Below, piece by piece: positions 4,279-22,504 of a stretch of 26,871 nt of DNA. Positions within the stretch are counted from its first letter, which is position 1; the number at the start of each line of letters is the position of its first letter. Origin of the DNA: Okeania sp. (GTDB lineage: Bacteria > Cyanobacteriota > Cyanobacteriia > Cyanobacteriales > Microcoleaceae); the NCBI RefSeq assembly GCF_035285525.1, contig NZ_JAYKGW010000240.1:1-26871 (forward strand), in the 5' to 3' direction. The translations under genes were made by a program, and so were the position numbers. The notes under the pieces are model-generated. The model was not told where the DNA came from. It worked only from the letters and a program-made list of their open reading frames with translations, and ran no database searches.

Positions 4279-4404
4279 TTCAGTTATCAGCTATCAGTCC
4301 AGTAAATGATGCATATATATGTAGGTTGGGTTGAGGGACGAAACCCAACAAAAACTTTATTCCCCTACTCCCTAATGCTAATGCACCATTTTAGCTGCGT
4401 CTGT

Positions 4405-4838
4405 CCAGTAGAGTGCGTTAGAGAAGCGTAACGCACCGCTCTCTATGGAAGCATAACCCACCCCCACAAATTATTTGGTAATCAATATCTATAGATGATT
4501 TTTGCATTAAATTATATAGTGGTGCGTTACGAAAGTGCGACTTTTCATGTCGCCCAGCGAAACGCACCCTACTGGATTGTTTCACCTAAAATACATTAGT
4601 AGGGGCGGGTTTGATCGGAAATTTTCATGCTTACTCTAAGATTTACACCGAACCCGCCTCGTTAGACGGTGGCTTATATCATAAGGGGGCGGGTGTATCT
4701 GACTTACTTATAAAAATTCGTTAACTTACTTGTGAAACCAGCCCCTACGGCTCCTGATTCTCTAATGCACAATTTTAGATGAAACAGTCCACTACTAGAC
4801 CAGCTAAAACTTGGGTTTGAAGACCAAACCCCTACAGT
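4405..4838. repeat. Cluster of nested hairpin/MITE-like dispersed repeats in a ~620-nt non-coding spacer
   Basis: Hairpins seen: 4405-4437 ccagtagagtgcgttagagaagcgtaacgcacc; 4521-4575 ggtgcgttacgaaagtgcgacttttcatgtcgcccagcgaaacgcaccctactgg (same family as 10221-10379, 16633-16744 and 23224-23302); ggggcgggttt...aacccgcctc; gggggcgggtg...ccagcccctac; and 4812-4838 cttgggtttgaagaccaaacccctac (related to 7796-7825 and 21735-21793). Confidence 0.65.
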
Positions 4839-4855
4839 TTTGCTAAGTATCTGAA

Positions 4856-4893
4856 CTTTTGACTTTTGACTTTTGACTTTTGACTTTTGACTT
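4856..4893. repeat. Short tandem heptamer repeat (CTTTTGA) x5 plus a partial unit, STRR-like
   Basis: Sequence is cttttga cttttga cttttga cttttga cttttga ctt. It ends 6 nt before the rbgA ATG at 4900. Confidence 0.95.
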
Positions 4894-4899
4894 CAAACA

Positions 4900-5835: not shown

Positions 5836-6255
5836 ATGTCAGCCAGGAATTTTTTCCATCAAGAAGTTAAAAATGCTCTAATAAAAGATGGATGGTCAAT
5901 CACCCATGACTCATTATTTATTAGTTTGGGTGATGTAGATATGTCTATTGATTTTGGTGCAAACCAACTAATTGGGGCAGAAAAAGATAATCAAAAAATA
6001 GCAGTTGAAATTAAAAGTTTTTTAGCAAAATCATCGGCTATTTATGAATTTCATACGGCCTTGGGACAGTTTATTAATTATCGGGCAGCACTGAGACAGA
6101 ATGAACCTGAGCGAATACTATATTTAGCTTTACCCTTGATTATTTATAACAACTTTTTTAAACTTAAATTTCCTCAATTAGTACTTAAAGAAAATCAAGT
6201 AAAATTAATTATTTATAATCCAGAAATAGAGGTAATTACAGAATGGAAAAACTAA
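5836..6255 (+). CDS. xisH: XisH family protein (fdxN-element excision controlling factor homolog)
   Basis: 139 aa. It has the family-typical N-terminus (FHQEVKNALIKDGWSITHD), then KIAVEIKSF and HTALGQFINYR, and ends EWKN. It overlaps the next gene by 13 nt (ATGGAAAAACTAA). Confidence 0.88.
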   Translation: MSARNFFHQEVKNALIKDGWSITHDSLFISLGDVDMSIDFGANQLIGAEKDNQKIAVEIKSFLAKSSAIYEFHTALGQFINYRAALRQNEPERILYLALPLIIYNNFFKLKFPQLVLKENQVKLIIYNPEIEVITEWKN

Positions 6256-6578
6256 AAATACATCGTTATTTAGTTCAGGAACTTTTGTTAGAATATAGTC
6301 AAAATAAGCCTGCTTATGGAGAAATTGAAGTACAGACAATTTTTGATACTATACGAGATCATTATCAAGTTGTTTATATTGGTTGGGAAAAAGAACATTT
6401 GATTCATAATTCTGCGATTCATATTGATATTAAAGGTGAGAAAATTTGGATTCAATGGAATGGAACTGAATTGGATATTGCAGAAAAATTGGTGATGAAT
6501 GGAGTCGCTAAAAAAGATATTGTTTTAGGATTTCAAACCCCTTTTATGAGAAAGCTTACAGAATATGCTGTGGAATAG
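6243..6578 (+). CDS. xisI: XisI family protein
   Basis: 111 aa. It contains FDTIRDHYQVVYIGWE, IHIDIKGEKIWIQ and DIVLGFQTPFMRK. It is translationally coupled to xisH. Confidence 0.88.
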   Translation: MEKLKIHRYLVQELLLEYSQNKPAYGEIEVQTIFDTIRDHYQVVYIGWEKEHLIHNSAIHIDIKGEKIWIQWNGTELDIAEKLVMNGVAKKDIVLGFQTPFMRKLTEYAVE

Positions 6579-6874: not shown

Positions 6875-7216
6875 TCATCTAACTCCATCCTTTGCAAATC
6901 CTGTAAATTGTCGAATATAAGGCGCTCGAAATCCCAAAACAATATCTGTTTTTGGTACTCCTAATTCTACTAACTGATAAGCTAATCCTTCTTCTGTAAA
7001 ATCCCTTTGAATCCAAATTTTTCCATCTTTAATCTCAATATGAATTGGGCATCCATAAATTCTTTCTTCGTCACGCCATCCTAAAAATAATAATAAATAG
7101 CGCTCGCGTTATAAATCGAATACTATTTCTGTAGTTTCCATATCTTCTTCAGATTCTTCTTGAGCGTGTTGATTAATAATTTTTTGAATTAACTGGCGAT
7201 AATCTAGTTTTTCCAT
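6875..7216 (-). pseudogene. xisI-like pseudogene (one in-frame TAA, frame otherwise intact)
   Basis: The minus-strand conceptual translation spans 114 codons: MEKLDYRQLIQKIINQHAQEESEEDMETTEIVFDL*RERYLLLFLGWRDEERIYGCPIHIEIKDGKIWIQRDFTEEGLAYQLVELGVPKTDIVLGFRAPYIRQFTGFAKDGVR*. The stop codon lies at 7111..7109. It aligns with the intact XisI (FDT.RD.Y....GW, IHI.IK..KIWIQ, DIVLGF). It is missing from the ORF track because both halves are under 60 aa. Confidence 0.8.
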
Positions 7217-7602
7217 AATGTGCTCTCCTGTTTTTGCACATTAAAAACTAACAGTTTTATCTGATACCTTTCTCACACAGCTTGCACAAATAAATCTGAA
7301 AAAAAGTCTTGATAAATATCTGCAGGAATTGCTAAATAAAGCACCCATTCTAATGTTAACTGCTCTCATGCTAGACGATAGTTCAGAAATTCAGAAACTG
7401 CCGATCTACCAACAAAGCTTTTTATTTCTACTGCTATTTTTCGAGTGGATTTTTCTGCCACTATAAACTTTTCTGCTTTTAAATCTATGTTAATCTTAAA
7501 TTGTTGAGTTAGCTTCAGAAATAGAGGAGCTTTAGTAATTGTCTATCCATCTTTTTCTAAAGCTACTCGAACTGTATCATGAAAGATATCTTTTGCTGAC
7601 AT
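7204..7602 (-). pseudogene. xisH-like pseudogene (three in-frame stops plus a short in-frame deletion)
   Basis: The minus-strand conceptual translation spans 133 codons: MSAKDIFHDTVRVALEKDG*TITKAPLFLKLTQQFKINIDLKAEKFIVAEKSTRKIAVEIKSFVGRSAVSEFLNYRLA*EQLTLEWVLYLAIPADIYQDFFSDLFVQAV*ERYQIKLLVFNVQKQESTLWKN*. The EKDGW tryptophan codon is now TAG, and the HTALGQ segment of the intact paralog is missing. It keeps the same ATGGAAAAACTA overlap with the downstream xisI-like frame. Confidence 0.8.
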
Positions 7603-7827
7603 AATTCATAGTAATAATGGGAATTGAAAAATGTTGAGCTTATCCTGTGGATAAGCTACGCTAAAGTTTAATTGAAGTTTGAATTATTATTAAACTGTTG
7701 CTCTATTTGAGAAACTAAATTATGATTAATTTCACCACCTTTTATTAACCAATCATCTGTAAGTTTATCTATAAGCTGATCGTATAATAGTGGGTGGTGG
7801 ATTTGGAAACCAAACCCCTACCAACCG

Positions 7828-8490
7828 TTACAACAACCCCCGATAACGAATAAACAACAAAATAACTGCCCAGGAACCTAACGCCACCTTTAGTGCTACC
7901 AAAATATTCAATATCGGAATAATTCCCCCACTGACTAATTCTCCTAATTCTCCTTGGGGTAACTCTGCTCCCATGAGAGTCACTGCTGCTAATACAATAA
8001 ATATTAAAACTGAAATTTTTTCCCAGGTAGCAGCATTCCATTTTTTATAGATTTTCTCCATCTGTTCCGATGATGAAGTAATAGCAATCAAACCAATAGC
8101 AGTTCCTCCTGCTACCCCAGCAGCAAAACCACCACCCGGACTCAAGTGACCCCGAATAGCTAACTCAATACTTACCAACGCCGAAATAGTAGCTCCCAAA
8201 CGTGCTAAAACTCTGGAGGGGCGATCGCTAAATTGATAAACTTGTTCGGTTGGTTGTTCGTTCGCTAATAAAAAACGGACTCCCAAAATAGCGATCGTAA
8301 ATACTACGACTTCAAAAATTGTGTCATAGAGTCGATTTCTAAAAATGATACCGGAAACTACATTTGCGACTCCACTATCGGCAACTATTGATTCCACAAT
8401 AGAAATATCACTCACTTCTACTGTGGGGTTTGGCATAATTAGCACTTTGACAAACAATGCTATTCCGGCTAAAAAATACACCCATTTCAT
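7828..8490 (-). CDS. mrpB: Mrp-type Na+/H+ antiporter subunit B (MnhB domain)
   Basis: 220-aa polytopic membrane ORF. GVANVVSGIIFRNRLYDTIFEVVVFTIAILGV matches the MnhB N.V..I....R..DT..E motif. It is the last gene of the operon and shares base 8490 with the upstream gene. Confidence 0.85.
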   Translation of the reverse strand: MKWVYFLAGIALFVKVLIMPNPTVEVSDISIVESIVADSGVANVVSGIIFRNRLYDTIFEVVVFTIAILGVRFLLANEQPTEQVYQFSDRPSRVLARLGATISALVSIELAIRGHLSPGGGFAAGVAGGTAIGLIAITSSSEQMEKIYKKWNAATWEKISVLIFIVLAAVTLMGAELPQGELGELVSGGIIPILNILVALKVALGSWAVILLFIRYRGLL

Positions 8491-9047
8491 TAATGTTTTT
8501 CCTCCTGGTTTGATACAGTTATGTATGTCACAGTTGTTTCTGATGCAGCCAACTCAGTTTGCATGATTTCAAACAGACGATACACTCTAATAGTAGTCTG
8601 ATAAGTTGGTTTGCCATCTGGTTGGCTACAAATAGCGTGAACTTCTTTAGTTAGCAACCCCCATTCTAAAGCTTGTATATTAGGATATTCGACTAACTCC
8701 AGACGCAAATGGTATTTATCAATAATTTTTCTGATATCGGCGATGAGTTCGGTAAAATAATTCTCTGTTTCTACTTCAACTTCTTTAATTATTCCCAAAC
8801 GCATGACTAAAGAGGAACGAACTGCAATTACATAAAGACTTATAGCTAACATTGTTCCGACTAAAGCTTCCGTTAAAGCTACATCCGCAGCGCCTAAAAC
8901 TGCATAAACTAATGCTGATACTGCTCCTAAAATAGCTCGAATAACTAGAGCATGATAAGGGTTAACTTGAAATACCAACATCAAAGCTGCTAACGGTAAC
9001 AGGGCGATGATAATATAAACATAAATATCAATCATTTTCTTCTCCAC
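8490..9047 (-). CDS. Mrp antiporter MrpA-C-terminal-like / MbhD (DUF4040) subunit with a ~100-aa soluble C-terminal extension
   Basis: 185 aa. AILGAVSALVYAVLGAADVALTEALVGTMLA matches the MbhD/DUF4040 A.DVALTEA motif. It overlaps both neighbouring genes. Confidence 0.78.
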   Translation of the reverse strand: MEKKMIDIYVYIIIALLPLAALMLVFQVNPYHALVIRAILGAVSALVYAVLGAADVALTEALVGTMLAISLYVIAVRSSLVMRLGIIKEVEVETENYFTELIADIRKIIDKYHLRLELVEYPNIQALEWGLLTKEVHAICSQPDGKPTYQTTIRVYRLFEIMQTELAASETTVTYITVSNQEEKH

Positions 9048-9306
9048 TACTAGAGCAATATGCCAAAACGTATCCCAAAACTGTATTCCAAATTGCTAAA
9101 GTAATAATTGCTAACAGTAACAAAGGCCATTCTTCAGGTATCTTCAGCAGTAAACCAACTATAATACTCATGGAACCCAAGGTATCAGCTACCGACAGAC
9201 TATGGAGTTTAAATAAAACTGATCTATTGCCAAGCAGAGGAAATGTTCCCCAAAACCAGAAAATAACCCCGATGATTATTAGACCGTAACTAAGAATATC
9301 TATCAT
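9028..9306 (-). CDS. mrpG: Mrp antiporter subunit G
   Basis: 92 aa with 3 TM segments. LFKLHSLSVADTLGS resembles the MnhG R.HA....DTLG motif. Its position is between the F and A-like subunits. Confidence 0.78.
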   Translation of the reverse strand: MIDILSYGLIIIGVIFWFWGTFPLLGNRSVLFKLHSLSVADTLGSMSIIVGLLLKIPEEWPLLLLAIITLAIWNTVLGYVLAYCSSSGEEND

Positions 9307-9554
9307 ATTTCGTTCAACCTTTTGATTAAATGTGCGAGTAGCATTAAACCTGCATTACCTACACTGAGAATAATTATTGCAACTACTCCTATAAACCAAT
9401 CATCTCGTGAAACTGAGACAATCAACATCATAATTGAAGTTTTGGTGGCAATACTGGCAAAAGCCAGCATTTTTTGCCAAATATCGTCATCTTGCCAAGC
9501 TTCATAAATAGGTATGAGCAAAGCTAAAATCATGGCAATTAAAATAAAATTCAT
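9303..9554 (-). CDS. mrpF: Mrp antiporter subunit F
   Basis: 83-aa 3-TM protein. The call rests mainly on size, topology, and a 4-nt overlapped position between the E and G subunits. Confidence 0.68.
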   Translation of the reverse strand: MNFILIAMILALLIPIYEAWQDDDIWQKMLAFASIATKTSIMMLIVSVSRDDWFIGVVAIIILSVGNAGLMLLAHLIKRLNEI

Positions 9555-9958
9555 CTTTTTCTACTCCGTTTTCTCCTGCGTTCGACTCGGTGTACTTCAT
9601 ACCACCCCTTTTCGTGATATTTCAAGACAATAGTTTTGGGGGTAAAAGTAATCAAAAATATATCCAGAAATATCAATCCAGGTGTTCGTTGTGGTTTCAC
9701 ACTTTCACAAACCAAAACTTCATCATCATGGGGATGAAACATAATTTGAATGGCTTCAATATAAGCTTGGGGAATGGCGACAATAATTTCCCACAAAACT
9801 CGCAACCAATCATTTAATGCTCCGAGGGATGTTTTGCCGCGTGGTAATAATACAGCAATAGTCACACCAATCATAATATTTGCCGGCCTTAAGTCAGCGG
9901 TGAGTAAAAACCAAATTGTCAGTCGTAGTATTACGTTAAAAAGGGAAGTTGCGTCCAT
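9551..9958 (-). CDS. mrpE: Mrp antiporter subunit E
   Basis: 135 aa. LITFTPKTIVLKYHEKGWYEVHRV resembles the MnhE ITLTPGT......L.VH motif. It has a basic C-terminal tail. Confidence 0.78.
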   Translation of the reverse strand: MDATSLFNVILRLTIWFLLTADLRPANIMIGVTIAVLLPRGKTSLGALNDWLRVLWEIIVAIPQAYIEAIQIMFHPHDDEVLVCESVKPQRTPGLIFLDIFLITFTPKTIVLKYHEKGWYEVHRVERRRKRSRKR

Positions 9959-10220
9959 ATTATTAATGAATAATGAATCATGAATAATTGATAATGAAAA
10001 CTATCTCTAATTATCCATTGAAAAGGAGAGGCTTTAAACCTCTAGGGATCAATTATCAATTTATCAGTTATATCACCTTTAAAGAAGAAAAAAGTAATTG
10101 AGAGATTTCCAAGAATTATTTGAAAATTTGGTAGACGTCTTATAAAAAGCATTTTTATAGCCATATATTTAGTTTTCATAATATTCTATAAATATTGTTA
10201 CTTAACTTGTTTATTACCTA

Positions 10221-10379
10221 CAGGACTAAAGCCATGAACGCTATTAGTAGGGTGTGTTTTGCGTTCCGCAAAGCTCCGCTTTATCTGTCGGCTCAAGCGC
10301 CGAAACGCTACGGGATATGAAAAGCGTACAACGCACAACGCACCTAAACCCTGTCTATGGTGGCTTTGCGTAAGTCCTG
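10221..10379. mobile_element. MITE-like element with caggacta...taagtcctg termini, GTGCGTT/AACGCAC hairpin family
   Basis: Sequence is caggactaaagccatgaacgctattagtagggtgtgttttgcg...atgaaaagcgtacaacgcacaacgcacc...gcgtaagtcctg. An inverted, shorter copy lies at 16633-16744, and shorter relatives at 4521-4575 and 23224-23302. Confidence 0.6.
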
Positions 10380-10410
10380 ACTTAGTTTAGTTACTAATTG
10401 GACAGCTTAT

Positions 10411-10815
10411 CTACAAAGGCTTTTTACACTCCATATTTAATGATAAAGGAAGCATAATTACATCATTAAACCCATGATTTTCTGCCTCTAGTAAGACAAA
10501 ATGAGAAATACCAATATCCTTATTACCCTCTAAAAATTGAGCCATTGTATTTGTATGGACTGAGATACGATTGACTAATCCAGCTTTGAGTAATTGAAAA
10601 TTTTCTGGCTTCAAATATTCTGGGCAACAATTTGGTGTATATTTGCCTTCTAGGAAAACTCGCCAGAAATAATTATCTCAAATACGAATTTCGCTAAAAA
10701 CTTGCTGACAACAATCTTCTACAAATCCCGACACTCCATTTTTCAGGTAGCGCTCCATTTGTTCTCGTTGTTGACGAGGAACACCTAGCATCCACAGGTT
10801 CAAGTCACTATCCAT
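10411..10815 (-). pseudogene. Truncated gene fragment with an in-frame TGA, lying between mrpD and mrpE. It tentatively resembles the C-terminal part of DUF3419/BtaA-like proteins.
   Basis: The minus-strand frame spans 135 codons: MDSDLNLWMLGVPRQQREQMERYLKNGVSGFVEDCCQQVFSEIRI*DNYFWRVFLEGKYTPNCCPEYLKPENFQLLKAGLVNRISVHTNTMAQFLEGNKDIGISHFVLLEAENHGFNDVIMLPLSLNMECKKPL*. The stop lies at 10680..10678, plausibly TGG to TGA. The ORF-track entry 10411..10614 is only the distal part. The family assignment is from memory (DNYF....L.G.Y...P.YL.PENF..L) and is unverified. Confidence 0.65.
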
Positions 10816-10833
10816 AAATTGTTAGTAGTAGTA

Positions 10834-12291
10834 TTACGTTACAAGGCGAAGTTGTGTCAATGCTATCCAGAATAGTAATATTAACATGAGGCTCATCAAC
10901 CCAATTAGATGCTCAAATTGTTCGATCGCTCTTGGTATTTTAATAGCTAATTTCTTAAAAATCAAGAAATATGCTAACCAACCAATAGCGATGGTTACTA
11001 ATGGTTTAATAATATTTTCGATGCTGTAAGCTTCATAATAAACAGCGTTTGCTACTATCAAACCGCCGAGTAAGAGTACCATTGCCGACCAAAAACCAGA
11101 GTTGACTTTGATGGTTTGCTCGTTTTTCTGGTGAGGTAGAAAAATGAATTTAGCAAAAGAAATGGCTGTTCCAACTGCGGCAATATTCATGCCAACAACT
11201 TGCCAGGGTAAGAGATTTTTTGCAGTTAGGACTTTGGCTCCAAAACCCGAAAGGAGGGGAAAACCAGATATGGAAAAACTAGCGATCGCTAATGCAAACC
11301 AAATTCGGTTATCAATAGGATGATGATGTAATTCTTTAAAATTTCGACTTGGCAAAACTCCTGCTATTAAAAATAAAGCAGATTTTACTAAACCATGAGT
11401 TAAAGCATAGAAACCTCCTACTATTGGAGCTGCAAGTACAAAACCTAACTGAGAAATGGTGTGAAATGCTAACATTCGCTTCGTATCTTTTTCAAATACA
11501 GCAAAAGCAACTCCTAAAACTGCGGTACAGACTCCAAAATATCTAACTATCGGATCGACTTCTGGTAATATCAGCGCACAACGTACTAATGGAAAGACTC
11601 CTGCTTTCACTACTACTCCGGACAACATTGCCGATACTGGACTTTCTGACTCAGAGTGAGTGAGAGGCAACCATAACCCAGAGACAAAGATACCACCTTT
11701 TGCCAATAATCCCAAAAATATGAGAGCGATCGCTTCTGGAGGAGCATTCAGCAAACCCATAAAATGAAAAGAATTATTAGCTTTATATACTAAAACTGCT
11801 CCCACCAGATAAAATAACATTGAGGTATTACTGACAAACAAATAGCGCAATCCTACCCAGATCGATTTATCGGTACGAGGATAACTTATCAGCAAAAAAG
11901 AAGCAATACTTATTACTTCTAAAGCTACATATAAACTAATAAAATCTGCACAAATAAAAGTAGCATTAACACTTCCATGCAGAATCACAGCTTGCATATA
12001 GAAAAAAGGTGTTTTATTACTTTGCCAACAATAAAGAATTACTGCTGTTGTGACTAGAGCATTAGTAATAATGAAAAATCCACTCAAATTATCAATAGTT
12101 AAACTAACACCAAAACTATCTAATAATTGGATATCTTTTACATCAGATAAACCGGAAAATATATACAAGGCATAATCAGCAGAAACAAATGCTATTCCTA
12201 ATGCTAAAAAGCGGTCTATTTTGGGGATTAAATAAATAATAAATCCCACAAAAAATGGTAGTGCCATCCAGGTGATCGTAATATTGGTCAT
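10834..12291 (-). CDS. mrpD: Mrp antiporter subunit D (NuoN/NuoM-like proton-conducting membrane transporter)
   Basis: 485-aa polytopic ORF. WLPLTHSESESPVSAMLSGVVVKAGVF matches the WLP.AH...P.PVSA.L.....K.G motif of complex-I antiporter-like subunits. Confidence 0.9.
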   Translation of the reverse strand: MTNITITWMALPFFVGFIIYLIPKIDRFLALGIAFVSADYALYIFSGLSDVKDIQLLDSFGVSLTIDNLSGFFIITNALVTTAVILYCWQSNKTPFFYMQAVILHGSVNATFICADFISLYVALEVISIASFLLISYPRTDKSIWVGLRYLFVSNTSMLFYLVGAVLVYKANNSFHFMGLLNAPPEAIALIFLGLLAKGGIFVSGLWLPLTHSESESPVSAMLSGVVVKAGVFPLVRCALILPEVDPIVRYFGVCTAVLGVAFAVFEKDTKRMLAFHTISQLGFVLAAPIVGGFYALTHGLVKSALFLIAGVLPSRNFKELHHHPIDNRIWFALAIASFSISGFPLLSGFGAKVLTAKNLLPWQVVGMNIAAVGTAISFAKFIFLPHQKNEQTIKVNSGFWSAMVLLLGGLIVANAVYYEAYSIENIIKPLVTIAIGWLAYFLIFKKLAIKIPRAIEQFEHLIGLMSLMLILLFWIALTQLRLVT

Positions 12292-12342
12292 TTCAGTTAT
12301 CAGCTTTTTCAGTTATCATTTATCAGCTTTTTCAGTTATCAG
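12292..12342. repeat. Tandem TCAGTTATCAG(C)TTTT-type repeat abutting the mrpD start
   Basis: Sequence is ttcagttatcagctttttcagttatcatttatcagctttttcagttatcag. A related ttcagttatcagctatcag follows the usp stop at 4279. Confidence 0.8.
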
Positions 12343-12539
12343 TTGTTAGTACCAACTGTTAAACTCAAAAGCTTGATATGAAATACAGATATTAATCATT
12401 CAATGTTTCCAGTGCGGACATCTTCCTCGCGTGGGTGTACCTCGTCAAGACAGGGCTAATTATTTGTCGCCAGAGAATATTTACAACTCTATATTTTTTT
12501 TTCAGTTCTGTACTTCCCAGACTTGCCACACTCCCCACC

Positions 12540-12878
12540 TTATGATGGTGTATTATTTTCTTCGATCGCTTTAGTTTCCAGAGTCGGATTATCTTTTGCT
12601 AGCTTCATTACACCCACTAACATTAATGCTTGAATAGAAAAACCAATAACAATAGCAGTTAAAATAACAGCCTGGGGAACGGGGTCAGAATAAGCAACAT
12701 TTTTGCCTGTAGCTACAATAGGGGTAAATACACCATCCCTTGATGCTACCAATACATAGTAAGCAATAACTCCTGTACTCATAATATCCATAGATATGAT
12801 TTTCATCACCAAATTTTTCTTAAAAATGATGCCAAAAAATCCGCATAATACGGTGAAAAATATACAAGCTTCTAACAT
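12540..12878 (-). CDS. mrpC: Mrp antiporter subunit C (NuoK-like)
   Basis: 112 aa with 3 TM segments. SDPVPQAVILTAIVIGFSIQALML matches the MnhC DP.PQAL.LTAIVI motif. It is the first gene of the operon. Confidence 0.88.
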   Translation of the reverse strand: MLEACIFFTVLCGFFGIIFKKNLVMKIISMDIMSTGVIAYYVLVASRDGVFTPIVATGKNVAYSDPVPQAVILTAIVIGFSIQALMLVGVMKLAKDNPTLETKAIEENNTPS

Positions 12879-13189
12879 ATTAGTTCATTATTTAGTTTAA
12901 ATCAGGACTAAATGTCAACCCAGAAACCCGGTTTCTAGTAGACGTTTACAGTTCAAAACAACGATTTGCCCTAGAAACCGGGTTCCTCCCTTGTAAGTCC
13001 TATAAATATTAAGATTTTACAATGTTTTAATATAAAATTATCAATATAAAAGAAAAAGATGGAAAAACATTCTACGGCTCTCAGATTTTGTTGATGTTGG
13101 GAACTTAAAGACAAATGGCCATTTGCTTCTATGAAGTTGTTATATTTTTTCTGAAAAGTGGCCAATTTTAGGATAATATTATATCCCGA

Positions 13190-13340
13190 CTATTCCCTGT
13201 TCCCTCTTTTAGTTAAATGTTACCAGTGGGATTTTTCGGGAACCGTGCATCTTGCTCCCGTGGATGTATCTCACAAAACTGGAATCTATAGCGCTGTGCC
13301 CAGGGAACAGGGAACAGGGAACAGGGAACAGAAGGAATAG
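13190..13340. repeat. Repeat element with inverted ctattccctgttccc / gggaacag..ggaatag ends, containing a (CAGGGAA) x4 heptamer array
   Basis: The left end, 13190-13207, is ctattccctgttccctc. The internal segment ccgtgcatcttgctcccgtggatgtatctcac is related to 12414-12450. tatagcgctgtgcccagggaac is related to the 22403 element. The heptamer array lies at 13301-13328. Confidence 0.6.
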
Positions 13341-13463
13341 ATTGCTTATAACATAAGATTTTTAGCTATTGGACAGTTCCTGTGATTTGTAAATATTAAG
13401 TGCGCACATTGCTATACTGTATAAACCTACTTCAGAAATTAGAAATTTTCAGCCAAAAAAATG

Positions 13464-13489
13464 TAGGGACGTCCCATGGAACGTCCCTA
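13464..13489 (-). terminator. Palindromic hairpin (TAGGGACGT...ACGTCCCTA family), likely intrinsic terminator of the FG-GAP gene
   Basis: Sequence is tagggacgtcccatggaacgtcccta. On the minus strand it is followed by cattttttt. It lies 63 nt downstream of the stop at 13552. Confidence 0.6.
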
Positions 13490-13551
13490 CTGTGGCCTAT
13501 CTATTAAAAGACTATTCTAAATCTGGTTTTGGTTTTTTGTGTCCTAACTAC

Positions 13552-15240
13552 TTAGAACCAAGTATTTTCATAAAAGCTAGCGACACCATCCCAGTTACCA
13601 ACGAAAGCATCTAAATCTGTATCTCCATCTAAATCTCCAAAAGCGGGAGCGCTATAAGTTCCAACATCAATACCATTAAGGGGGTTAGCATTTCCTGTTC
13701 TTTCTTTGAATTTAGCTTTTTTTATAGTACCAGTATTTTGGAAATATCGTACTGTACCATCTTTGTTACCAATTAAAGCATCATAATCTTGATCGTCATC
13801 TACATCTACAAAAGCAATTTTACTGTACTCACCCACATCTACTCCATTCAAAGGATTAGGGCCACCAGCAATTAAAGCAAACCGAGGCCGTTTTTGCGTA
13901 CCATTATTCCGGAAGTATGAGATATTGCCATCACGGTTCCCACTAAAAGCATCATAATCTCCATCGTTATCTATATCTACAAAAGTAGGGGTACTGTCAT
14001 TACCTACATTTAAACCATTGAAGGGATTCTCAACAGCTTTAGAACGAGCAAACCGAGGGTCATCTTTTGCACCCACATTTTCATAAAATATAATATTGCC
14101 ATCGTTGTACCCACTAAAAGCATCATAATCTCCATCATTGTCTATATCTACAAATGCAGGGGAACTATTATAACGATTATAACGATCATTTATCCCCCAA
14201 AATGGATTTTCTGTGGCAACTGGTTGATAAAAACGGGGTTGATTTGTAGTACCAATATTCTCCAAGTAGTTAATATTACCAGCGCTGTTACCAATGACAG
14301 CATCTAAATCTTCATCTCCATCTATGTCTATTAAAGTTGGAATGTTACGATTACCTACATCATACAGTTCTAGAGGGTTAGTAAAAAATTCTGGTTCCTT
14401 GATTTCGCCAATATTTTCCAGATAATCAACTGTTCCATCCTTTTTACCTACAAAAAAGTCATAATCTTTGTCATTATCTATATCTGCAAAAGTTGGTATA
14501 CTATAATCACCGATGTCATAACTAAATACAGGATTTTTACTACCAATAACCTGGGAAAAAGTAGGGCGTTTTTTAGTACCAGTATTTTCATATAATTCTA
14601 CAGTACCATTACGGTTGCCCACGAAGGCATCATAATCTTTATCGTTATCTATATCTATAAAAGTAGGCGCACTACGATCGCCTATATCGTAGCCATCAAA
14701 TGGATTTTTCTTTCCGGTTTGTTCTTTAAATTTGGGATTTTTTTTGTTACCTGTATTTTGATAGTAACTAACAGTACCATCTGAGTTACCAATAAAAACG
14801 TCATAATCTCCATCTTTGTTAATATCGACAAAGACAGGAACGCTGTAGGCACCTACATCAACACCAGATAATGGGTTGCCCACTTGACTTTGCTCAAACC
14901 GAGGTTTTCTCCAGTTCCGGGTATTTTCGTAGTATATAACCTCACCATTGATATTGCCAAAGAAAGCATCTAAGTCTTTATCTCCATCAATATCGACAAA
15001 AGCTGGTTGACTATAAAGTCCTACATTTACACCATCAAAAGGATTTTTATTTCCGGTTCTTTCTCGGTAATCTGGTTCTTCTGGGTTGCCTACATTTTCC
15101 CAGTAACCGACTGTTCCATTCCTGTTTCCCACAAAAGCGTCTAAGTCCTTATCACCATCTATATCTACAAATATGGTGTTGCTGTAGCTGTCAACTGCAA
15201 CATCTGCTAATGGGTTTTTTACTTCAAAATCAATTGCCAT
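13552..15240 (-). CDS. FG-GAP/VCBS (integrin-alpha-like) repeat protein with ten ~56-aa repeats and no signal peptide
   Basis: 562 aa. There are ten copies of F(V/I)DIDxDxDxDaFvGNxxGtvxYyeNtG with Ca-binding-like DxDxDxD loops: FVDIDGDKDLDAFVGN, FVDIDGDKDLDAFFGN, FVDINKDGDYDVFIGN, FIDIDNDKDYDAFVGN, FADIDNDKDYDFFVGK, LIDIDGDEDLDAVIGN, FVDIDNDGDYDAFSGY, FVDIDNDGDYDAFSGN, FVDVDDDQDYDALIGN, FGDLDGDTDLDAFVGN. Confidence 0.9.
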   Translation of the reverse strand: MAIDFEVKNPLADVAVDSYSNTIFVDIDGDKDLDAFVGNRNGTVGYWENVGNPEEPDYRERTGNKNPFDGVNVGLYSQPAFVDIDGDKDLDAFFGNINGEVIYYENTRNWRKPRFEQSQVGNPLSGVDVGAYSVPVFVDINKDGDYDVFIGNSDGTVSYYQNTGNKKNPKFKEQTGKKNPFDGYDIGDRSAPTFIDIDNDKDYDAFVGNRNGTVELYENTGTKKRPTFSQVIGSKNPVFSYDIGDYSIPTFADIDNDKDYDFFVGKKDGTVDYLENIGEIKEPEFFTNPLELYDVGNRNIPTLIDIDGDEDLDAVIGNSAGNINYLENIGTTNQPRFYQPVATENPFWGINDRYNRYNSSPAFVDIDNDGDYDAFSGYNDGNIIFYENVGAKDDPRFARSKAVENPFNGLNVGNDSTPTFVDIDNDGDYDAFSGNRDGNISYFRNNGTQKRPRFALIAGGPNPLNGVDVGEYSKIAFVDVDDDQDYDALIGNKDGTVRYFQNTGTIKKAKFKERTGNANPLNGIDVGTYSAPAFGDLDGDTDLDAFVGNWDGVASFYENTWF

Positions 15241-15950
15241 TTTTTTCTGCTTTAAAATACGAAACTAGGTACAATTTTGGCATAAGAAAATGATAATGAT
15301 ATGTAGCGATCGCAATTTTTAACAAACATTTTTCCTGAACTTAAATTACTGACTAGAAAAGAGTTTAGGGGGTTCAGATTCATGGTTTTACTACATAGCA
15401 ATGGTGAGAATATTTATTTTTTTCACACTCCTATATACTTCTTATATCCTTTTTTATACACCCCTATCAGATTGCTGATCTCGACGGAATATTTTGCTAA
15501 TATTGTTGCTGATAATGACAGAAATACATTATTTTTTGTAAGTCTTTTTTCATGAAAAATTAGATCTAAAATAAACTGGTTATATCAAATGATTTTGTTG
15601 TTATCAAGTGTTATGAAAAACTTGTTATATGGGAATTCGATAATATTAGTATGATTATAAACTTCCTATTAATTATCGCAAAATATTTGAAAAATAGTAT
15701 AAATAAATTTGCTGGCGCAAAGGACTAATAAATTGGGTTGATTGGTGTGATATTGTTGTTCAAACCACAAAATTTCCGTAAAGAAACCCGGTTTTTGTGC
15801 AAGTCTGGAAATAAGTGTTTACTCTTTCTGGGAAAAGAGCGATCGCTCCTTATTGCTGATGTTACAATTATCGTCATAGTAGTGCTAGCAATATGAAACC
15901 TACCCTACTAATAATAGCAACCTTAAAACTATATTGTTACTAATTTATCA

Positions 15951-16547
15951 ATGTCTTATAGTCAATTTACAATGCCACAAATAAAATCATAATTTGGCAT
16001 TTTACTCTCAGAAAAAATAGGCATATTTTCCAAAATTCCAGAATCACAATACAGCCAATTTTTATCAGAAACTCTGGATTATAATATTCCATTAGCTCTG
16101 GCAATTAATTCTGAAAAATCTCGTTCGGAACTGATAGTTATGCCTATTCTAATTGAACTAAAACAACAATTATGAAATCAAATAAGTCTATTTTCTGGGA
16201 AATAATTTACAGTTGATTCTCAGAGAAGTTTAAATGGATTTGGCGATTTTTTAATTAGTAAATCTCCTGAACAGTTAGTTATAGAAGCTCCGGTTGTTAC
16301 TGTGGTGAAAGCAAAAAATGATAATATAGAAACAGGTCTCGGTCAATGTATGGCATAAATGATTGCTGCTCAATTATTTAATCAGCAAAAAGGAAATGAA
16401 ATTAAAAAAATTTTTGCAGTTATTATAACAGCTAGTCTCTGGAAATTTATGGAGCTAGAAAATCAAACTATTACTATTGATATAAATGAATATTTTTTAG
16501 GAAATTTAGGTCAGATTATTGGGATTCTGAAAAGCTTCATTGAATAA
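15951..16547 (+). pseudogene. Conserved-hypothetical pseudogene (199-codon frame with four in-frame stops), possibly a PD-(D/E)XK-like nuclease-fold family
   Basis: A single frame reads MSYSQFTMPQIKS*FGILLSEKIGIFSKIPESQYSQFLSETLDYNIPLALAINSEKSRSELIVMPILIELKQQL*NQISLFSGK*FTVDSQRSLNGFGDFLISKSPEQLVIEAPVVTVVKAKNDNIETGLGQCMA*MIAAQLFNQQKGNEIKKIFAVIITASLWKFMELENQTITIDINEYFLGNLGQIIGILKSFIE*. The stops are at 15990 (TAA), 16173 (TGA), 16203 (TAA) and 16356 (TAA). ORF-track entry 16359..16547 is only the last segment. The family resemblance is from memory of common cyanobacterial hypothetical proteins and is unverified. Confidence 0.7.
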
Positions 16548-16632
16548 CAGAGGATTTCAGTAATTAATAATTATTACCCCTTCTTAAAAGAAGGTGATTG
16601 ACTAAAAAACTAAATGCTTACTTAGATTGTTC

Positions 16633-16744
16633 GGGAGTTACGCAAGGGTATTATATATGGAGTTTTGGTGCGTGGTGCGTTCTGCGCTTTTCATGTCGCG
16701 TAGCCAAACACACCCTAATAATAGCGTTCATAGCTTTAGTCCTG
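16633..16744. mobile_element. Inverted, shorter copy of the 10221-10379 MITE-like element
   Basis: The reverse complement reads caggactaaagctatgaacgctattattagggtgtgtttggctacgcgacatgaaaagcgcagaacgcaccacgcaccaaaactcc. This matches caggactaaagccatgaacgctattagtagggtgtgtttt...atgaaaagcgtacaacgcacaacgcacc. Confidence 0.6.
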
Positions 16745-16831
16745 TTTTTTTAAGCATTATGTACTATGCCACAACTTTGTATAATGTTTAAATACAAGAT
16801 AAAATGATGAAGATATCAAAATAATCCATGT

Positions 16832-18937
16832 ATGAACGTTAATACAAAAGTCGCAAAAAAAGCATTACTAATTGGTAAAGGACTACCCCCTTTTGAGTCT
16901 ATCAAAACAGAAGATGTAGTACCTGCAATGACAGAATTACTGACAGAATTAGAACCAGAATTAATCAATTTAGAAACAACAGTTAAACCAACTTGGAATG
17001 ACTTAGTAGAACCTTTACAAAAATTAGAAGATCGTTTAACTTGGAGTTGGGGAATAGTAGGACATTTGATGGGAGTAAAAAACAGTCCTGAACTCCGAAC
17101 AGCTTATAATGAAATACAACCCAAAGTGATAGAATTTATTAATAAATTAAGTCAAAGTAAACCCCTTTATCAAACCTTTAAAAACTTAAGGGATAGTGAT
17201 AGTTGGCAAAACTTAGATTCAGGGCAAAAACGCATAGTTGAAACTGCTATTAGAAATGCCGAACTTTCCGGAGTAGCTTTAGAAGGAGAAACACGAGAAC
17301 GCTTCAATGCCATTCAACTAGAACTAGCAGAACTTTCTACCAAATTTTCTAATAATGTTCTTGATGCCACCACAGCTTTTAGCCTCACATTAACTCAAAA
17401 AGAAGAAGTAGACGGTTTACCACCCAGTTTATTAAGTTTAGCAGCTCAAGCTGCCAAAGATGATGGCTCTGAAAATGCTACTCCCGAAAACGGACCTTGG
17501 CGCATCACTCTCGACTATCCTAGTTTTGTTCCCTTCATGCAGCATAGTCAAAAACGGGAGTTGCGAGAAAAACTCTATAAAGCTTTTGTTAGTCGTGCTT
17601 CTAGTGATGAATTAAATAATTATCCTTTAATTGAACGCATTCTGGAACTACGTCAACAAAAAACCGAAATTTTAGGCTTTAAGAGTTATGCAGAACTAAG
17701 TTTAGCCAGCAAAATGGCTCCCAGTGTGGCAGCAGTAGAAAAATTATTGGAAGAACTCCGGAGTGTTAGTTATGATGCTGCATACAAAGACTTAGAAGAC
17801 CTGAAAGCTTATGCTGCCAGCAAAAATGCACCAGAAGCAAATGACCTCAAACATTGGGATACCAGTTTTTGGTCAGAAAGACTACGGGAAGCAAAATTTT
17901 CCTTTACCGCAGAAGAGTTGCGACCATATTTCCCACTGCCACAAGTTCTAGATGGGTTATTTGCTCTAGTCAAACGAATATTTGGCATTAATATTACTGT
18001 TGCGGATGGGACAGCACCAGTTTGGCATGAAGATGTGCGTTATTTTCAAGTTAGTGATGAAACCAATACGCCCATTGCTTACTTTTATCTCGATCCTTAT
18101 AGTCGTCCCTCAGAAAAACGAGGTGGTGCTTGGATGAATGAGTGTGTAACTCGTACTAAAATTGTCGAGAATGGTGAAACTACTTTGCGTTTACCTGTAG
18201 CATATTTACAATGTAATCAAACACCACCTATAAATGATCGACCTAGTTTGATGACTTTTAGCGAGGTAGAAACTTTGTTCCATGAATTTGGGCATGGTTT
18301 ACAACACATGCTAACAAAGGTTGACTATGCAGGTGCTGCTGGTATTAATAATATTGAGTGGGATGCGGTAGAGTTACCGAGTCAGTTTATGGAAAATTGG
18401 TGTTATGATCGCTCCACTTTATTCGGAATGGCAAAACATTATGAAACCGGAGAGACTTTACCAGAACATTATTATCAGAAACTTTTAGCTGCCAGAAATT
18501 ATATGAGCGGTAGTGCCATGTTACGTCAGTTGCACTTTGCTCTGGTTGATATTGAACTACATCATCGTTATCAACCAGGTGGCAAAGAAACAGTAGTGGA
18601 TGTCCGGAAACGAATCGCTGAGACTACTACTGTTTTACAACCTTTGCCAGAAGATTCATTTTTGTGTGTGTTTGGGCATATTTTTTCTGGTAGTTATGCT
18701 GCTGGTTATTACAGTTACAAATGGGCAGAAGTATTGAGTGCTGATGCTTTTGCTGCTTTTGAAGAAGCTGGCTTGGAAAATGAAGAGGCGATCGCTACTT
18801 GTGGTAAGCGTTTTAGGGATACGGTTTTAGCATTGGGCGGGAGTTTGCATCCGATTGAGGTGTTTCAAACTTTCCGAGGTCGGGAACCAAATACTGAACC
18901 TTTATTACGACATAGTGGTTTGGTAGCTCCGGTTTAA
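16832..18937 (+). CDS. prlC: Oligopeptidase A (M3 family zinc metallopeptidase)
   Basis: 701 aa. It carries the HEFGH zinc motif (TLFHEFGHGLQHML), a downstream E (IEWDAVELPSQFMENW), and length and overall pattern typical of M3A PrlC/Dcp. Confidence 0.93.
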   Translation: MNVNTKVAKKALLIGKGLPPFESIKTEDVVPAMTELLTELEPELINLETTVKPTWNDLVEPLQKLEDRLTWSWGIVGHLMGVKNSPELRTAYNEIQPKVIEFINKLSQSKPLYQTFKNLRDSDSWQNLDSGQKRIVETAIRNAELSGVALEGETRERFNAIQLELAELSTKFSNNVLDATTAFSLTLTQKEEVDGLPPSLLSLAAQAAKDDGSENATPENGPWRITLDYPSFVPFMQHSQKRELREKLYKAFVSRASSDELNNYPLIERILELRQQKTEILGFKSYAELSLASKMAPSVAAVEKLLEELRSVSYDAAYKDLEDLKAYAASKNAPEANDLKHWDTSFWSERLREAKFSFTAEELRPYFPLPQVLDGLFALVKRIFGINITVADGTAPVWHEDVRYFQVSDETNTPIAYFYLDPYSRPSEKRGGAWMNECVTRTKIVENGETTLRLPVAYLQCNQTPPINDRPSLMTFSEVETLFHEFGHGLQHMLTKVDYAGAAGINNIEWDAVELPSQFMENWCYDRSTLFGMAKHYETGETLPEHYYQKLLAARNYMSGSAMLRQLHFALVDIELHHRYQPGGKETVVDVRKRIAETTTVLQPLPEDSFLCVFGHIFSGSYAAGYYSYKWAEVLSADAFAAFEEAGLENEEAIATCGKRFRDTVLALGGSLHPIEVFQTFRGREPNTEPLLRHSGLVAPV

Positions 18938-18941
18938 ATAG

Positions 18942-18975
18942 TAGGGACGTTCCTTCCATGGAAGGAACGTCCCTA
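18942..18975. terminator. Perfect 34-nt palindrome 5 nt after the prlC stop; possible bidirectional terminator or repeat
   Basis: The sequence tagggacgttccttcCATGgaaggaacgtcccta is self-complementary over all 34 nt. There is no clear T-run on the plus strand, so terminator function is uncertain. Confidence 0.45.
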
Positions 18976-19027
18976 TAAAATTGAAAAATAAGCGATCGCT
19001 TATCCTGTAACAGTTTCCCCAAAAAAC

Positions 19028-19158
19028 ATTATAGCAGTCGAAGCAAAGGGCACCGAAATTTATAAATCCTGTTTGCGGAGCATTTCCCTATACGAAACAC
19101 CCTTTGATACTACTCTGCTGTTACCTTTTCCCTATTCCCGATTCAAGTAGCGCTATAA
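19028..19158. mobile_element. MITE-like element (tatagcgct...gcttcgactgctata family), copy 1
   Basis: The reverse complement reads ttatagcgctacttgaatcgggaatagggaaaaggtaacag...caggatttataaatttcggtgccctttgcttcgactgctataa. It aligns at both ends with 22403-22504, which lies in the opposite orientation. Confidence 0.6.
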
Positions 19159-19172
19159 CAACAAAAACATGA

Positions 19173-19385
19173 TTGATTCAGAAATACTCAAAAAAACTTC
19201 AAGGAACATCCATCCAAGAACGCATTCTTGTTATTGAAGCAGTTTTGCAAACAGTTAAAAACGATATGGGTCTAACTTCCTCACAACAGCTTTCCTCTGA
19301 AGAACAACCCCTGAAAGGAAAAGTGATTAATTATGACGCTCCTTATGAACCTATAGCCCTACAAGACTGGGAAACATTAAAATGA
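19173..19385 (+). CDS. Putative VapB-like antitoxin, possibly frameshifted at its 5' end
   Basis: 70-aa frame with a TTG start (IQERILVIEAVLQTVKND...PYEPIALQDWETLK). Its stop overlaps the start of the PIN-domain frame as ATGA. An upstream ATG at 19169 reads MIDSEILKK and would join this frame if the A7 run at 19190-19196 were one A shorter. Confidence 0.5.
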   Translation: MIQKYSKKLQGTSIQERILVIEAVLQTVKNDMGLTSSQQLSSEEQPLKGKVINYDAPYEPIALQDWETLK

Positions 19386-19781
19386 TTCTAGACACTCATA
19401 TCTGGATTTGATGGGTTGACGATAATCCTAAACTATCTTCCACAAACCGAGAAATCATTCAAGCAAATCAAACAACTGGTCTAGGAATTAGCATTATATC
19501 TTGTTGGAAAATTGCTAAAATTAGTCGAGAAAAAGAGACTAACTTTTGAGTCTTCTGTAGAAGAATGGCTAAAACTTGCTCTCAACTACCCTGGTATCCA
19601 ATTACTAGAATTAAACCTGCCGATTATTATAGAATCTACTCAATTATCTGGATTTCATGCAGAGCCAGCAGACCAGATTATTGTGGCAACAGCTAAAATT
19701 CACAGTTCGTTATTAGTCACTCAAGACGAAAAAATCTTGAATTTTTTCAAAGGAAATAATAAATTGACTCAAACCTACTAA
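19382..19781 (+). pseudogene. VapC-like PIN-domain toxin pseudogene (nonsense, +1 frameshift and active-site missense)
   Basis: The first frame reads MILDTHIWI*WVDDNPKLSSTNREIIQANQTTGLGISIISCWKIAK, with TGA at 19409-19411. After an extra A in the run at 19517-19520 the sequence continues in the ORF-track frame: LVEKKRLTFESSVEEWLKLALNYPGIQLLELNLPIIIESTQLSGFHAEPADQIIVATAKIHSSLLVTQDEKILNF. The total length of 400 nt is not a multiple of 3. PIN acidic residues are present (D4, PAD, TQD), but the expected CWE glutamate is K. Confidence 0.8.
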
Positions 19782-19834: not shown

Positions 19835-19907
19835 TAGGGACGTTCTATGGAAGGTCCCTAAAGAATCAGAAAATTAGCGATCGCTTATTCTGCATCAGTT
19901 TCCTACT
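19835..19907. repeat. Degenerate second copy of the palindrome + HIP1 + tail segment found at 18942-19020
   Basis: tagggacgttctatggaaggtccctaaagaatcagaaaattagcgatcgcttattctgcatcagtttcctac compares with tagggacgttccttccatggaaggaacgtccctataaaattgaaaaataagcgatcgcttatcctgtaacagtttcccc. It contains the stop codon of the CDPS-like gene. Confidence 0.7.
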
Positions 19908-20838: not shown

Positions 20839-21324
20839 TTAAACATTAGTTTCAAACAAAGCCAGGCGCAGTCGCTCACTTGCATCTTCCATTTCAGCTA
20901 ATGATTCAATACTAACAACCATACTACGCTCAATTCCTAAAACTTCTGCTGCTTTAGCCACTGCTGCTTTTTCTTTTTCTTGGTAAACTCCATCAGCACG
21001 ACTCATTTTAATTGCTTGGTATAACATAACTCGGCGAAAATTCATAGGAAAATCGTACTTGATACCATTCAATAGTTCTTCTATACTAGCATTTTTCCAA
21101 TCGAATTTACGAAGTGTTTCAATGTATTCTTCAGAATCTACAGTTAATAATTCTTGCTCATCAATATACCATTGAAATTCTGCTTCTGCTAGTTCGCCAT
21201 CCGCACCCGCGATCGCCATTAATGCACCACCATAACTCAATGCCACATCAAAATCAACTGGAGATGTGATGTTATATTTATTTTTAGCGTATTTAGTTGT
21301 CTGGAGACTTTTGCCGTTACTCAT
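20839..21324 (-). CDS. TerB-like (tellurite-resistance TerB fold) small helical protein, paralog 1
   Basis: 161 aa. It has two A-x-ADG-x-E repeats (GGALMAIAGADGELAEAEFQWY and LYQAIKMSRADGVYQEKEKAAVAKAAEVLGI), as in TerB (IAVASDGVSSEEK / IAVAKSDGNFDDDEKSAVREIARSLGF). It lies 78 nt upstream of the CDPS-like gene. Confidence 0.78.
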   Translation of the reverse strand: MSNGKSLQTTKYAKNKYNITSPVDFDVALSYGGALMAIAGADGELAEAEFQWYIDEQELLTVDSEEYIETLRKFDWKNASIEELLNGIKYDFPMNFRRVMLYQAIKMSRADGVYQEKEKAAVAKAAEVLGIERSMVVSIESLAEMEDASERLRLALFETNV

Positions 21325-21409: not shown

Positions 21410-21571
21410 ATCATTGTATATAGAACCCATTTGGGTTCTATAAAATTAGGTGGGGAGATGGGGAGATGGGGAGATAGAACTATTTTTCTTTTTTCCCTCC
21501 TGGGAGAGGTTAGGGGTGGGTTAACTCCTTTGCCAAAAACCCGCATCCCGTGCAAAGATACCAAATAAGTT
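21410..21571. mobile_element. MITE-like element with TATAGAACCCATTTGG-type termini, copy 1 (contains a GGGGAGAT x3 array)
   Basis: Sequence is tatagaacccatttgggttctataaaattaggtg(gggagat)x3agaactatttttcttttttccctcctgggagaggttaggggtgggttaactcctttgcc...taccaaataagttttatatagg. It is collinear with 26618-26751. A partial relative lies at 23315-23350. Confidence 0.65.
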
Positions 21572-22402: not shown

Positions 22403-22504
22403 TTATATAGCGCTGCGCGTTAGGGAATAGGGAACAGGGAACATTAGAATCTCAGGAGTTTCAGGATTGATAAATGTCCGCGCCTTTTGCTTCGACTGCT
22501 ATAT
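22403..22504. mobile_element. MITE-like element (tatagcgct...gcttcgactgctata family), copy 2, inverted relative to 19028-19158
   Basis: Sequence is ttatatagcgctgcgcgttagggaatagggaacagggaacattagaatctcaggagtttcaggattgataaatgtccgcgccttttgcttcgactgctata. Confidence 0.6.

Follow-up and report, generated by a model that had tools for sequence, protein, structure and literature searches.

The window analysed here, a contig of 26,871 nucleotides (NZ_JAYKGW010000240.1) from a metagenome-assembled genome (MAG) labelled Okeania sp. (taxid 3100323; Oscillatoriales, Microcoleaceae), carries a series of inactivated accessory genes: xisH-xisI and PD-(D/E)xK nuclease modules, a vapBC-like pair and a btaA-methyltransferase lipid cassette. 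These are very probably ordinary, fairly young pseudogenes and remnants of dispensable genes in an Okeania-like filamentous marine cyanobacterium, and nothing beyond neutral decay is needed to explain them. The genes belong to families with intact members, bear disabling lesions and show relaxed purifying selection relative to their orthologs; from this we infer that the decay was neutral and that ordinary mutation and drift sufficed for it. The lesions, re-derived from the assembled sequence (Table 1), comprise 10 nonsense codons, two +1 frameshifts, one in-frame deletion and two truncating deletions. An initial annotation, made from the nucleotide letters by themselves, had counted 10 nonsense codons against one or two frameshifts, and every stop, both frameshifts and the in-frame deletion were recovered where it had placed them. 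Its further claim, that each frame translates into family-like sequence from end to end, holds for five of the six frames, which match a family or close homologs.

Four of the stops lie in a 199-codon frame and occur, as first described, in the order TAA, TGA, TAA, TAA. Over 100% of its length and without indels, this frame aligns with intact proteins of about 200 amino acids (aa) from Dapis, Okeania and Hydrocoleum at 85–88% aa identity, and the gene is about 90% identical in DNA to these orthologs. An intact ortholog (P0001) matches the PADLOC family PD_DExK, of the cas-associated type (E 1.3e-52); a PDB profile search for the PD-DExK family gave no meaningful match. The nuclease motif D99...E120-A-K122 is invariant or nearly so in the alignment, and the window copy has Lys at position 120. 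In all, the pseudogene carries five window-specific replacements at invariant or nearly invariant positions (C98G, E120K, G156A, T159I and G161A). In Dapis and Okeania the intact gene adjoins xisH-xisI and MNT-HEPN pairs, a neighbourhood typical of an accessory or defence island.

The dead xisH and xisI genes are adjacent and overlap at 7204–7216, as they do in Okeania SIO3I5 (L086), and constitute an XisH/XisI pair (PF08814/PF08869). Their translations remain close to the respective Pfam models, matching XisI with E 7e-40 over positions 2–109 of 110 and XisH with E 4e-39 over positions 1–132 of 134. The single TAA of xisI and the TAG and two TGA codons of xisH stand as initially reported, and so does the in-frame deletion in xisH: aligned in DNA with two homologs, the gene lacks 21 bp at about 7391/7392, a gap flanked by short AATTTC direct repeats. 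The dead xisI is 88–89% identical in DNA to its counterparts in Okeania SIO3I5 and in 'Cyanobacteria bacterium P01_H01_bin.35' (bin.35, L087), both of which retain GAA at the stop site. A recent duplication of the neighbouring intact xisH-xisI pair was considered as the source of the dead pair and rejected, given that the corresponding proteins share only 47% and 41% aa identity and so represent a different subfamily. Proteins identical to those of the intact pair are entered in NCBI as XisH and XisI of Okeania sp. Decay of xisH/xisI modules recurs within the clade, since relatives carry lesions of their own: the orthologous xisI of bin.35 (L087 5402–5740) has a single in-frame TGA (TTA>TGA) in an otherwise preserved frame, and a Dapis xisH (L082 8230–8770) is broken by a short tandem repeat insertion and a frameshift.

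The vapBC-like pair, a module that may have arrived as a cassette, consists of two frames with a 4-nt ATGA overlap at 19382–19385. For the vapB-like gene a +1 frameshift had been proposed as a possibility, and comparison with homologs confirms it. An exhaustive HMMER search recovered 17 of these; the aligned ones begin MIESEILEKLQG..., a Met followed by (I/L)ESEILEKLQG-like residues, and their starts fit the frame-repaired N-terminus MIDSEILKKLQG only. A slightly shortened vapB-like product may still be made, because a 70-codon open reading frame (ORF) from a TTG at 19173 remains open. The gene has no Pfam or NCBIfam match and belongs to no named antitoxin family. In the vapC-like gene the TGA, the +1 frameshift and the Glu-to-Lys change are all present as originally described, and the repaired frame matches the Pfam PIN domain (E 1.5e-8). 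The homolog P0270 reads DTHIWIWW...SCWEVAK in this region, with Trp at the stop site and the conserved acidic Glu at the Lys site, so that one acidic residue of the PIN domain is mutated. Direct repeats of 55 nt, 82% identical (18964–19018 and 19849–19903) and containing the HIP1 palindrome GCGATCGC, bracket the vapBC-like remnant.

Larger deletions are evident at the mrp locus. In two relatives, Microcoleaceae MO_207.B10 (L089) and a Trichodesmium MAG (L090), the gene order of the operon is mrpC-mrpD1-mrpD2-orf204-btaA-methyltransferase(245 aa)-methyltransferase(184 aa)-mrpE-F-G-mbhD-mrpB, with the btaA and two-methyltransferase cassette lying between mrpD2 and mrpE (L089 6356–10960; L090 4727–8086). 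The corresponding stretch of the window had been taken for a single fragment with one TGA; the TGA is there, but the fragment is a btaA remnant joined by a deletion to a methyltransferase tail. The btaA part matches Pfam DUF3419 (E 2e-25) and is 85–86% identical in aa to BtaA of the same two relatives, and set against a full-length protein of about 400 aa it is a remnant only. A deletion junction at its 5′ edge (10815/10816) immediately follows the mrpD stop; tblastn and blastn indicate a loss of about 1.8 kb there. At its other end the remnant is fused through a deletion of about 2.0 kb (junction 10485/10486) to the methyltransferase tail, which was recognized by tblastn with the 184-aa methyltransferase of L089 (residues 161–184, 92% identity).

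Upstream of this remnant, the window MrpD is D2-like over its entire length, whereas the relatives encode mrpC-D1-D2. The spacer between mrpC and mrpD matches the Trichodesmium mrpC-D1 spacer and is the scar of mrpD1 loss (about 1.7 kb; junction 12291/12292). The excised gene was probably removed by recombination between the mrpD paralogs, because a D1-type spacer precedes a D2-like ORF and both mrpD1 and mrpD2 begin ATGACCAATATTAC. A D1/D2 chimaera was rejected as an account of mrpD, the ORF being D2-like throughout and the D1 type confined to the upstream spacer. Together, three clean deletions of about 1.7–2.0 kb each took out mrpD1, the 204-codon gene and the two ends of btaA, along with the whole of one methyltransferase gene and the greater part of the other. 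This contradicts the initial view that the region lacked deletional decay. The initial claim of wholly intact housekeeping genes likewise needs qualification: the core genes present are intact, but of two mrpD paralogs the mrp operon now has just one. The mrpD-end/mrpE-start junction occurs twice in the window (9913–9963 and 10816–10866) as a 51-nt direct repeat, 82% identical, flanking the remnant, and this duplication suggests a past insertion of the cassette at this site.

Table 1. Features of the window, inactivated genes and their immediate context first (codons in parentheses are ancestral)
Feature	Position	Strand	Details
xisI pseudogene	6875..7216	-	TAA 7109-7111 (GAA, Glu); frame otherwise complete
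xisH pseudogene	7204..7602	-	TAG 7543-7545 (TGG, Trp); TGA 7366-7368 and 7273-7275 (both TTA, Leu)
Methyltransferase gene remnant, last 24 codons and stop	10411..10485	-	Fused in frame to btaA remnant
btaA (DUF3419) remnant, codons 201-312 of 402	10486..10821	-	TGA 10678-10680 (TGG, Trp)
mrpD, D2-like	10834-12291	-	
mrpC-mrpD spacer, mrpD1 type	12292..12539	-	With CTGATAA-type short repeats; joined to mrpD2-type ORF
PD-(D/E)xK nuclease family pseudogene	15951..16547	+	TAA 15990 (GAA), TGA 16173 (TCA), TAA 16203 (GAA), TAA 16356 (GAA)
vapB-like antitoxin gene	19169..19385	+	+1 insertion in A7 run 19190-19196, parting native ATG from gene body
vapC-like PIN-domain toxin pseudogene	19382..19781	+	TGA 19409-19411; +1 frameshift near 19526-19535; Glu to Lys 19508-19510
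Intact xisH-xisI pair	5836..6578	+	Convergent with dead pair; Pfam XisH 5e-54, XisI 3e-40
SdrD-like surface protein gene, partial			Runs off left window end
PEP-CTERM peptide gene			From ORF listing and NCBIfam/Pfam scans
pgk, usp, ylqF			After PEP-CTERM peptide gene
mrp operon		-	Gene order mrpC, mrpD, mrpE, F, G, mbhD-like, mrpB
FG-GAP repeat protein gene	13552-15240	-	
M3 oligopeptidase gene			After 199-codon frame, before vapB/vapC-like frames
Cyclodipeptide-synthase-like ORF, 296 codons	19903-20793	-	
Two TerB paralogs, tandem	20839-21324 and 21868-22353	-	161 aa each
secA			Last gene on window map
Short intergenic repeats	21417-21538 / 26616-26734		
Short intergenic repeats	4541-4571 / 16687-16745 / 10220-10262		Last copy inverted
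Short intergenic repeats	19030-19071 / 22462-22503		Second copy inverted

The ortholog alignments proposed at the outset for recovering ancestral codons and the mutation spectrum were run with outgroup DNA from Dapis (L082), Okeania SIO2C9 (L084) and Hydrocoleum (L085) for the PD-DExK gene, from Okeania SIO3I5 and bin.35 for xisHI, and from Microcoleaceae MO_207.B10 and Trichodesmium for btaA. The window genes are 84–91% identical to these sequences, and nine stops were resolved: four GAA>TAA, two TTA>TGA, and one each of TGG>TAG, TGG>TGA and TCA>TGA. The tenth, in vapC, was judged to be TGG>TGA from the single 48%-identical homolog P0270. The predicted origin of the stops in EKDGW, IWIWW and IRIWDNYF from Trp codons (TGG>TAG/TGA) was therefore correct, as was the prediction of Glu lesions, four of which are GAA>TAA stops and one a catalytic Glu replaced by Lys.

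The changes that formed the stops are GC>AT in 7 of 10 cases, T>G in two and C>G in one. Scored only at sites where the outgroups agree, the per-site rate of GC>AT on the window branch is about three times that of AT>GC, a bias under which GC at equilibrium would lie near its present value. An AT-biased point-mutation process, as first suggested, is thus upheld by the spectrum as a whole and by most of the stops, but not by the two T>G and the one C>G. A special mutational regime favouring stops, whether oxidative G>T damage, a deaminase-like process or an unusually low rate of small indels, could be read from the four G>T changes at GAA among the 10 stops, from a stop count nominally above expectation under some models, and from the finding of a single small indel against about 50 neutral substitutions over about 1.65 kb. 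Once the stops are set aside, G>T and C>A together account for just 5 of 68 substitutions; four different base changes, T>G and C>G among them, lie behind the stops, and the structure of the genetic code makes most single-step routes to a stop transversions. With small counts, and with an excess that vanishes after correction for the choice of genes when all branch substitutions are neutral (see below), we regard such a regime as very unlikely.

Selection on these genes is relaxed. Of the 77 substitutions on the window branch, counted only where the outgroups agree, 29 are synonymous, 39 are missense and 9 are nonsense, giving a nonsynonymous-to-synonymous count of 48:29 versus 9:21 on the outgroup branches of the PD-DExK gene. 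For the latter gene the window branch contributes 15 synonymous, 18 missense and 4 nonsense changes, and the three outgroup terminal branches together 21 synonymous and 9 missense. The recent relaxation of selection that had been proposed agrees with this raised ratio and with the replacement of catalytic and invariant residues. Relaxed selection, combined with stops, frameshifts and mutated catalytic residues, therefore points to loss of function of these genes. Under a rough partition, about two-thirds of the 77 substitutions belong to the neutral phase, which corresponds to about 3% neutral divergence and suggests that the pseudogenes are young without being brand-new.

The expected yield of stops was obtained by listing every possible single-base change of the reconstructed ancestral sequences, with seven mutation spectra applied. 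Neutral models predict that 4.8–8.1% of substitutions are nonsense, against 11.7% observed (9/77), and the unconditional probability of at least nine nonsense changes is 0.01–0.17. Conditioning on at least one stop per gene, as the genes were noticed because they bear stops, raises this probability to 0.14–0.35 if all branch substitutions are taken as neutral. How likely the 10:2 ratio of nonsense codons to frameshifts is hinges entirely on the indel-to-substitution ratio assumed: the probability is 0.41 at 0.03 and 0.15 at 0.05, and up to the latter value the ratio is unremarkable. In general, indels arise at about one-tenth the rate of substitutions (PMC6054270).

Several points weigh against neutral decay as a sufficient explanation. 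When only about 65% of the branch substitutions are neutral, the conditional probability falls to 0.02–0.08, and the stop count is then nominally high; at an indel-to-substitution ratio of 0.1, two frameshifts in 12 disabling events is few (P 0.014). The substitution count for xisH/xisI is deflated, as its two outgroups are 14–18% apart and agreeing sites only were scored, so that the apparent nonsense share is inflated. In addition, the lesions are known from assembled sequence, and the one further assembly, a Logan contig, covers only 13388–18971 and probably derives from the same sequencing run. These figures leave room for a mild true bias towards nonsense or against small indels.

Ordinary mutation under neutral decay would nonetheless account for the pattern along the following lines. 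Once selection on accessory genes lapses, neutral point mutations would build up in sequences whose AT-rich codon usage is full of GAA, TTA, TCA and TGG, each one step from a stop. Because some 5–8% of random substitutions in such sequence would create a stop, several stops could be expected after a few percent of neutral divergence, and frames would mostly survive because small indels arise less often than substitutions. Larger deletions, which have already taken about 5.5 kb at the mrp locus, would proceed in parallel, through recombination between the mrpD paralogs and at junctions with little or no microhomology.

The preservation of frames end to end, and the presence of two TGA codons at conserved Trp positions, could also be taken to mean that the genes still function through readthrough of stops, codon reassignment or programmed frameshifting. 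The lesions make use of all three stop codons, however, and these replace Glu, Leu, Ser and Trp; the intact genes of the window terminate with TAA, TAG and TGA alike, and the contig holds no tRNA gene. Catalytic residues are mutated as well, and btaA is a 112-codon torso. A change of genetic code or readthrough was rejected on the grounds of three stop types, four ancestral residues and normal terminators, and continued function by any such route has next to no chance of being correct.

Sequencing or assembly error was considered as well, as internal stops are a known mark of poor assemblies (PMC11017572), the contig comes from a MAG and both frameshifts fall in A-runs (19190–19196 and about 19529–19535). 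Yet neighbouring ORFs totalling about 17.4 kb, some of them of 937, 701, 562 and 485 codons, are free of stops, and alongside the stops the same genes show replacements of invariant or catalytic residues, an in-frame deletion and clean kilobase-scale deletions. A separate Logan assembly (contig L001, run SRR19514071) is 100% identical over its stretch of the window, the four-stop gene included. A literature search found no publication on this run. Artefacts are a highly improbable source of the lesions.

The taxonomic setting bears on whether the contig samples something larger. The initial annotation had speculated on a Nostocales symbiont, which the assignment of the source to Oscillatoriales rules against. 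Nine window proteins are identical to NCBI '[Okeania sp.]' entries (MEB3343477...MEB3343500), and the nearest homologs of window proteins come from Okeania, Dapis, Hydrocoleum and Trichodesmium; the oligopeptidase shares 87% identity with its Okeania hirsuta counterpart, and MrpD has its closest match in a Trichodesmium MAG. As each window protein is the sole member of its own 90%-identity cluster, the lineage is a divergent relative of these four genera. A scan of genome contigs returned nothing nearer than Okeania hirsuta (87% aa identity), with synteny limited to the peptidase gene. A conspecific intact allele with which to date the lesions was not found, the only match in two metagenome scans (L091) being just 90% identical. 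An AT shift of the lineage was considered and rejected: the GC content of the window (0.370) lies within that of the relatives' loci (0.346–0.399), and the GC at third codon positions (GC3) of orthologs is similar to that of relatives or only slightly lower.

These data allow a further reading to be weighed, namely that a lineage-wide wave of gene loss followed a change of lifestyle in a host-associated or sheltered Okeania-like lineage at an early stage of reductive evolution, with the contig as a sample of a genome-wide burst of pseudogenes. Such a wave is compatible with neutral decay of the individual genes, and it would fit the tally over 27 kb (about six genes dead or reduced to remnants, about 21 intact), the loss of two features that two relatives keep, namely the phosphorus-sparing btaA lipid cassette and one of the mrpD paralogs, and the divergence of the lineage from sequenced relatives. 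Against it, GC and GC3 resemble those of relatives, all core genes present are intact, low coding density and turnover of defence and toxin-antitoxin (TA) genes are traits of the whole clade (PMC4143802, PMC9950141), xisH/xisI decay of the same kind occurs in relatives, and a single contig is too little to reveal a pattern across the genome. The host-restricted lineage in early reductive evolution that was originally proposed has no compositional sign, because there is no AT shift relative to relatives. We consider the gene-loss wave unlikely. The stronger claim of a distinctive mutational or selective regime (a very low small-indel rate or a nonsense-enriched spectrum), perhaps along with a genome-wide burst of accessory-gene death marking a recent lifestyle change, and hence an early reductive snapshot in the Trichodesmium/Okeania clade, is decidedly unlikely.

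The remainder of the window was mapped by combining an ORF listing with NCBIfam and Pfam scans. Intact coding sequence makes up about 65% of the contig, recognizable gene remnants about 9%, and sequence without detectable coding homology about 26%. Neither tRNA genes nor Rfam matches were detected anywhere on the contig. A six-frame Pfam scan of the three largest intergenic regions (1330–2533, 4279–4899 and 12879–13551) recovered no additional remnants, and tblastn with the neighbours of the relatives' orthologs returned the methyltransferase tail only.

Among the intact genes, the FG-GAP gene consists of eight to nine units of 171 nt with mutual identities of 60–85%, and the two TerB paralogs share about 80% DNA identity over 300 nt. 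The cyclodipeptide-synthase-like ORF matches the tRNA-dependent cyclodipeptide synthase family of NCBIfam (TIGR04539, E 1.5e-21), with Pfam CDPS just under threshold; its TTG-start version is absent from the protein collection, and the true start is probably elsewhere. The intergenic space contains short repeat families of 30–120 nt (82–93% identical), absent from Rfam, that may be MITE-like, and some of them have brief blastn matches in loci of relatives, Okeania hirsuta among them. Upstream of mrpD (12292–12350) and at about 4279–4330 lie short tandem repeats of the CTGATAA/CTGAAAAAG type, which also occur in the Trichodesmium locus (L090 1540–1607). They resemble the short tandemly repeated sequences that filamentous cyanobacteria commonly carry.

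The phenomenon is a familiar one, most probably the ordinary decay of accessory genes with no special process behind it. Pseudogene-rich cyanobacterial symbionts such as the Azolla symbiont 'Nostoc azollae', the model behind the initial reading, likewise combine inactivated accessory genes with intact core genes, but the window belongs to the order Oscillatoriales and displays no AT shift relative to relatives. Bacterial pseudogenes under relaxed selection (PMC6054270; NCBI PGAP classes) offer a match in family homology, stops, frameshifts, truncations, catalytic replacements and a raised nonsynonymous-to-synonymous ratio; nothing essential differs, the nonsense share of the window being on the high side yet within neutral expectation for AT-rich codon usage. 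In the closely related Trichodesmium, only about 60% of the genome is coding (PMC4143802), gene remnants have been reported in the abundant non-coding DNA, and clades differ in toxin-antitoxin and defence content (PMC9950141). The contig shares with this low-coding-density lineage its modest intact coding fraction, its remnants, its short repeat families and its turnover of defence and TA genes; it differs in coming from a MAG labelled Okeania, at about 10–15% protein divergence from every sequenced relative, and the comparison extends to one contig.

The window shows decay of accessory genes cleanly and at good resolution, down to the ancestral codons, in a clade whose low coding density was known before. 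The practical gain is in annotation: the '199-codon hypothetical' becomes a dead PD-(D/E)xK nuclease, the 'fragment' between mrpD and mrpE a btaA remnant with a methyltransferase tail, and the lineage one that has lost mrpD1 and the btaA cassette, which its relatives keep inside the mrp operon. Should the same density of dead genes and the same nonsense bias hold genome-wide, they would indicate that a relative of Trichodesmium not yet sampled has recently shifted its ecology.

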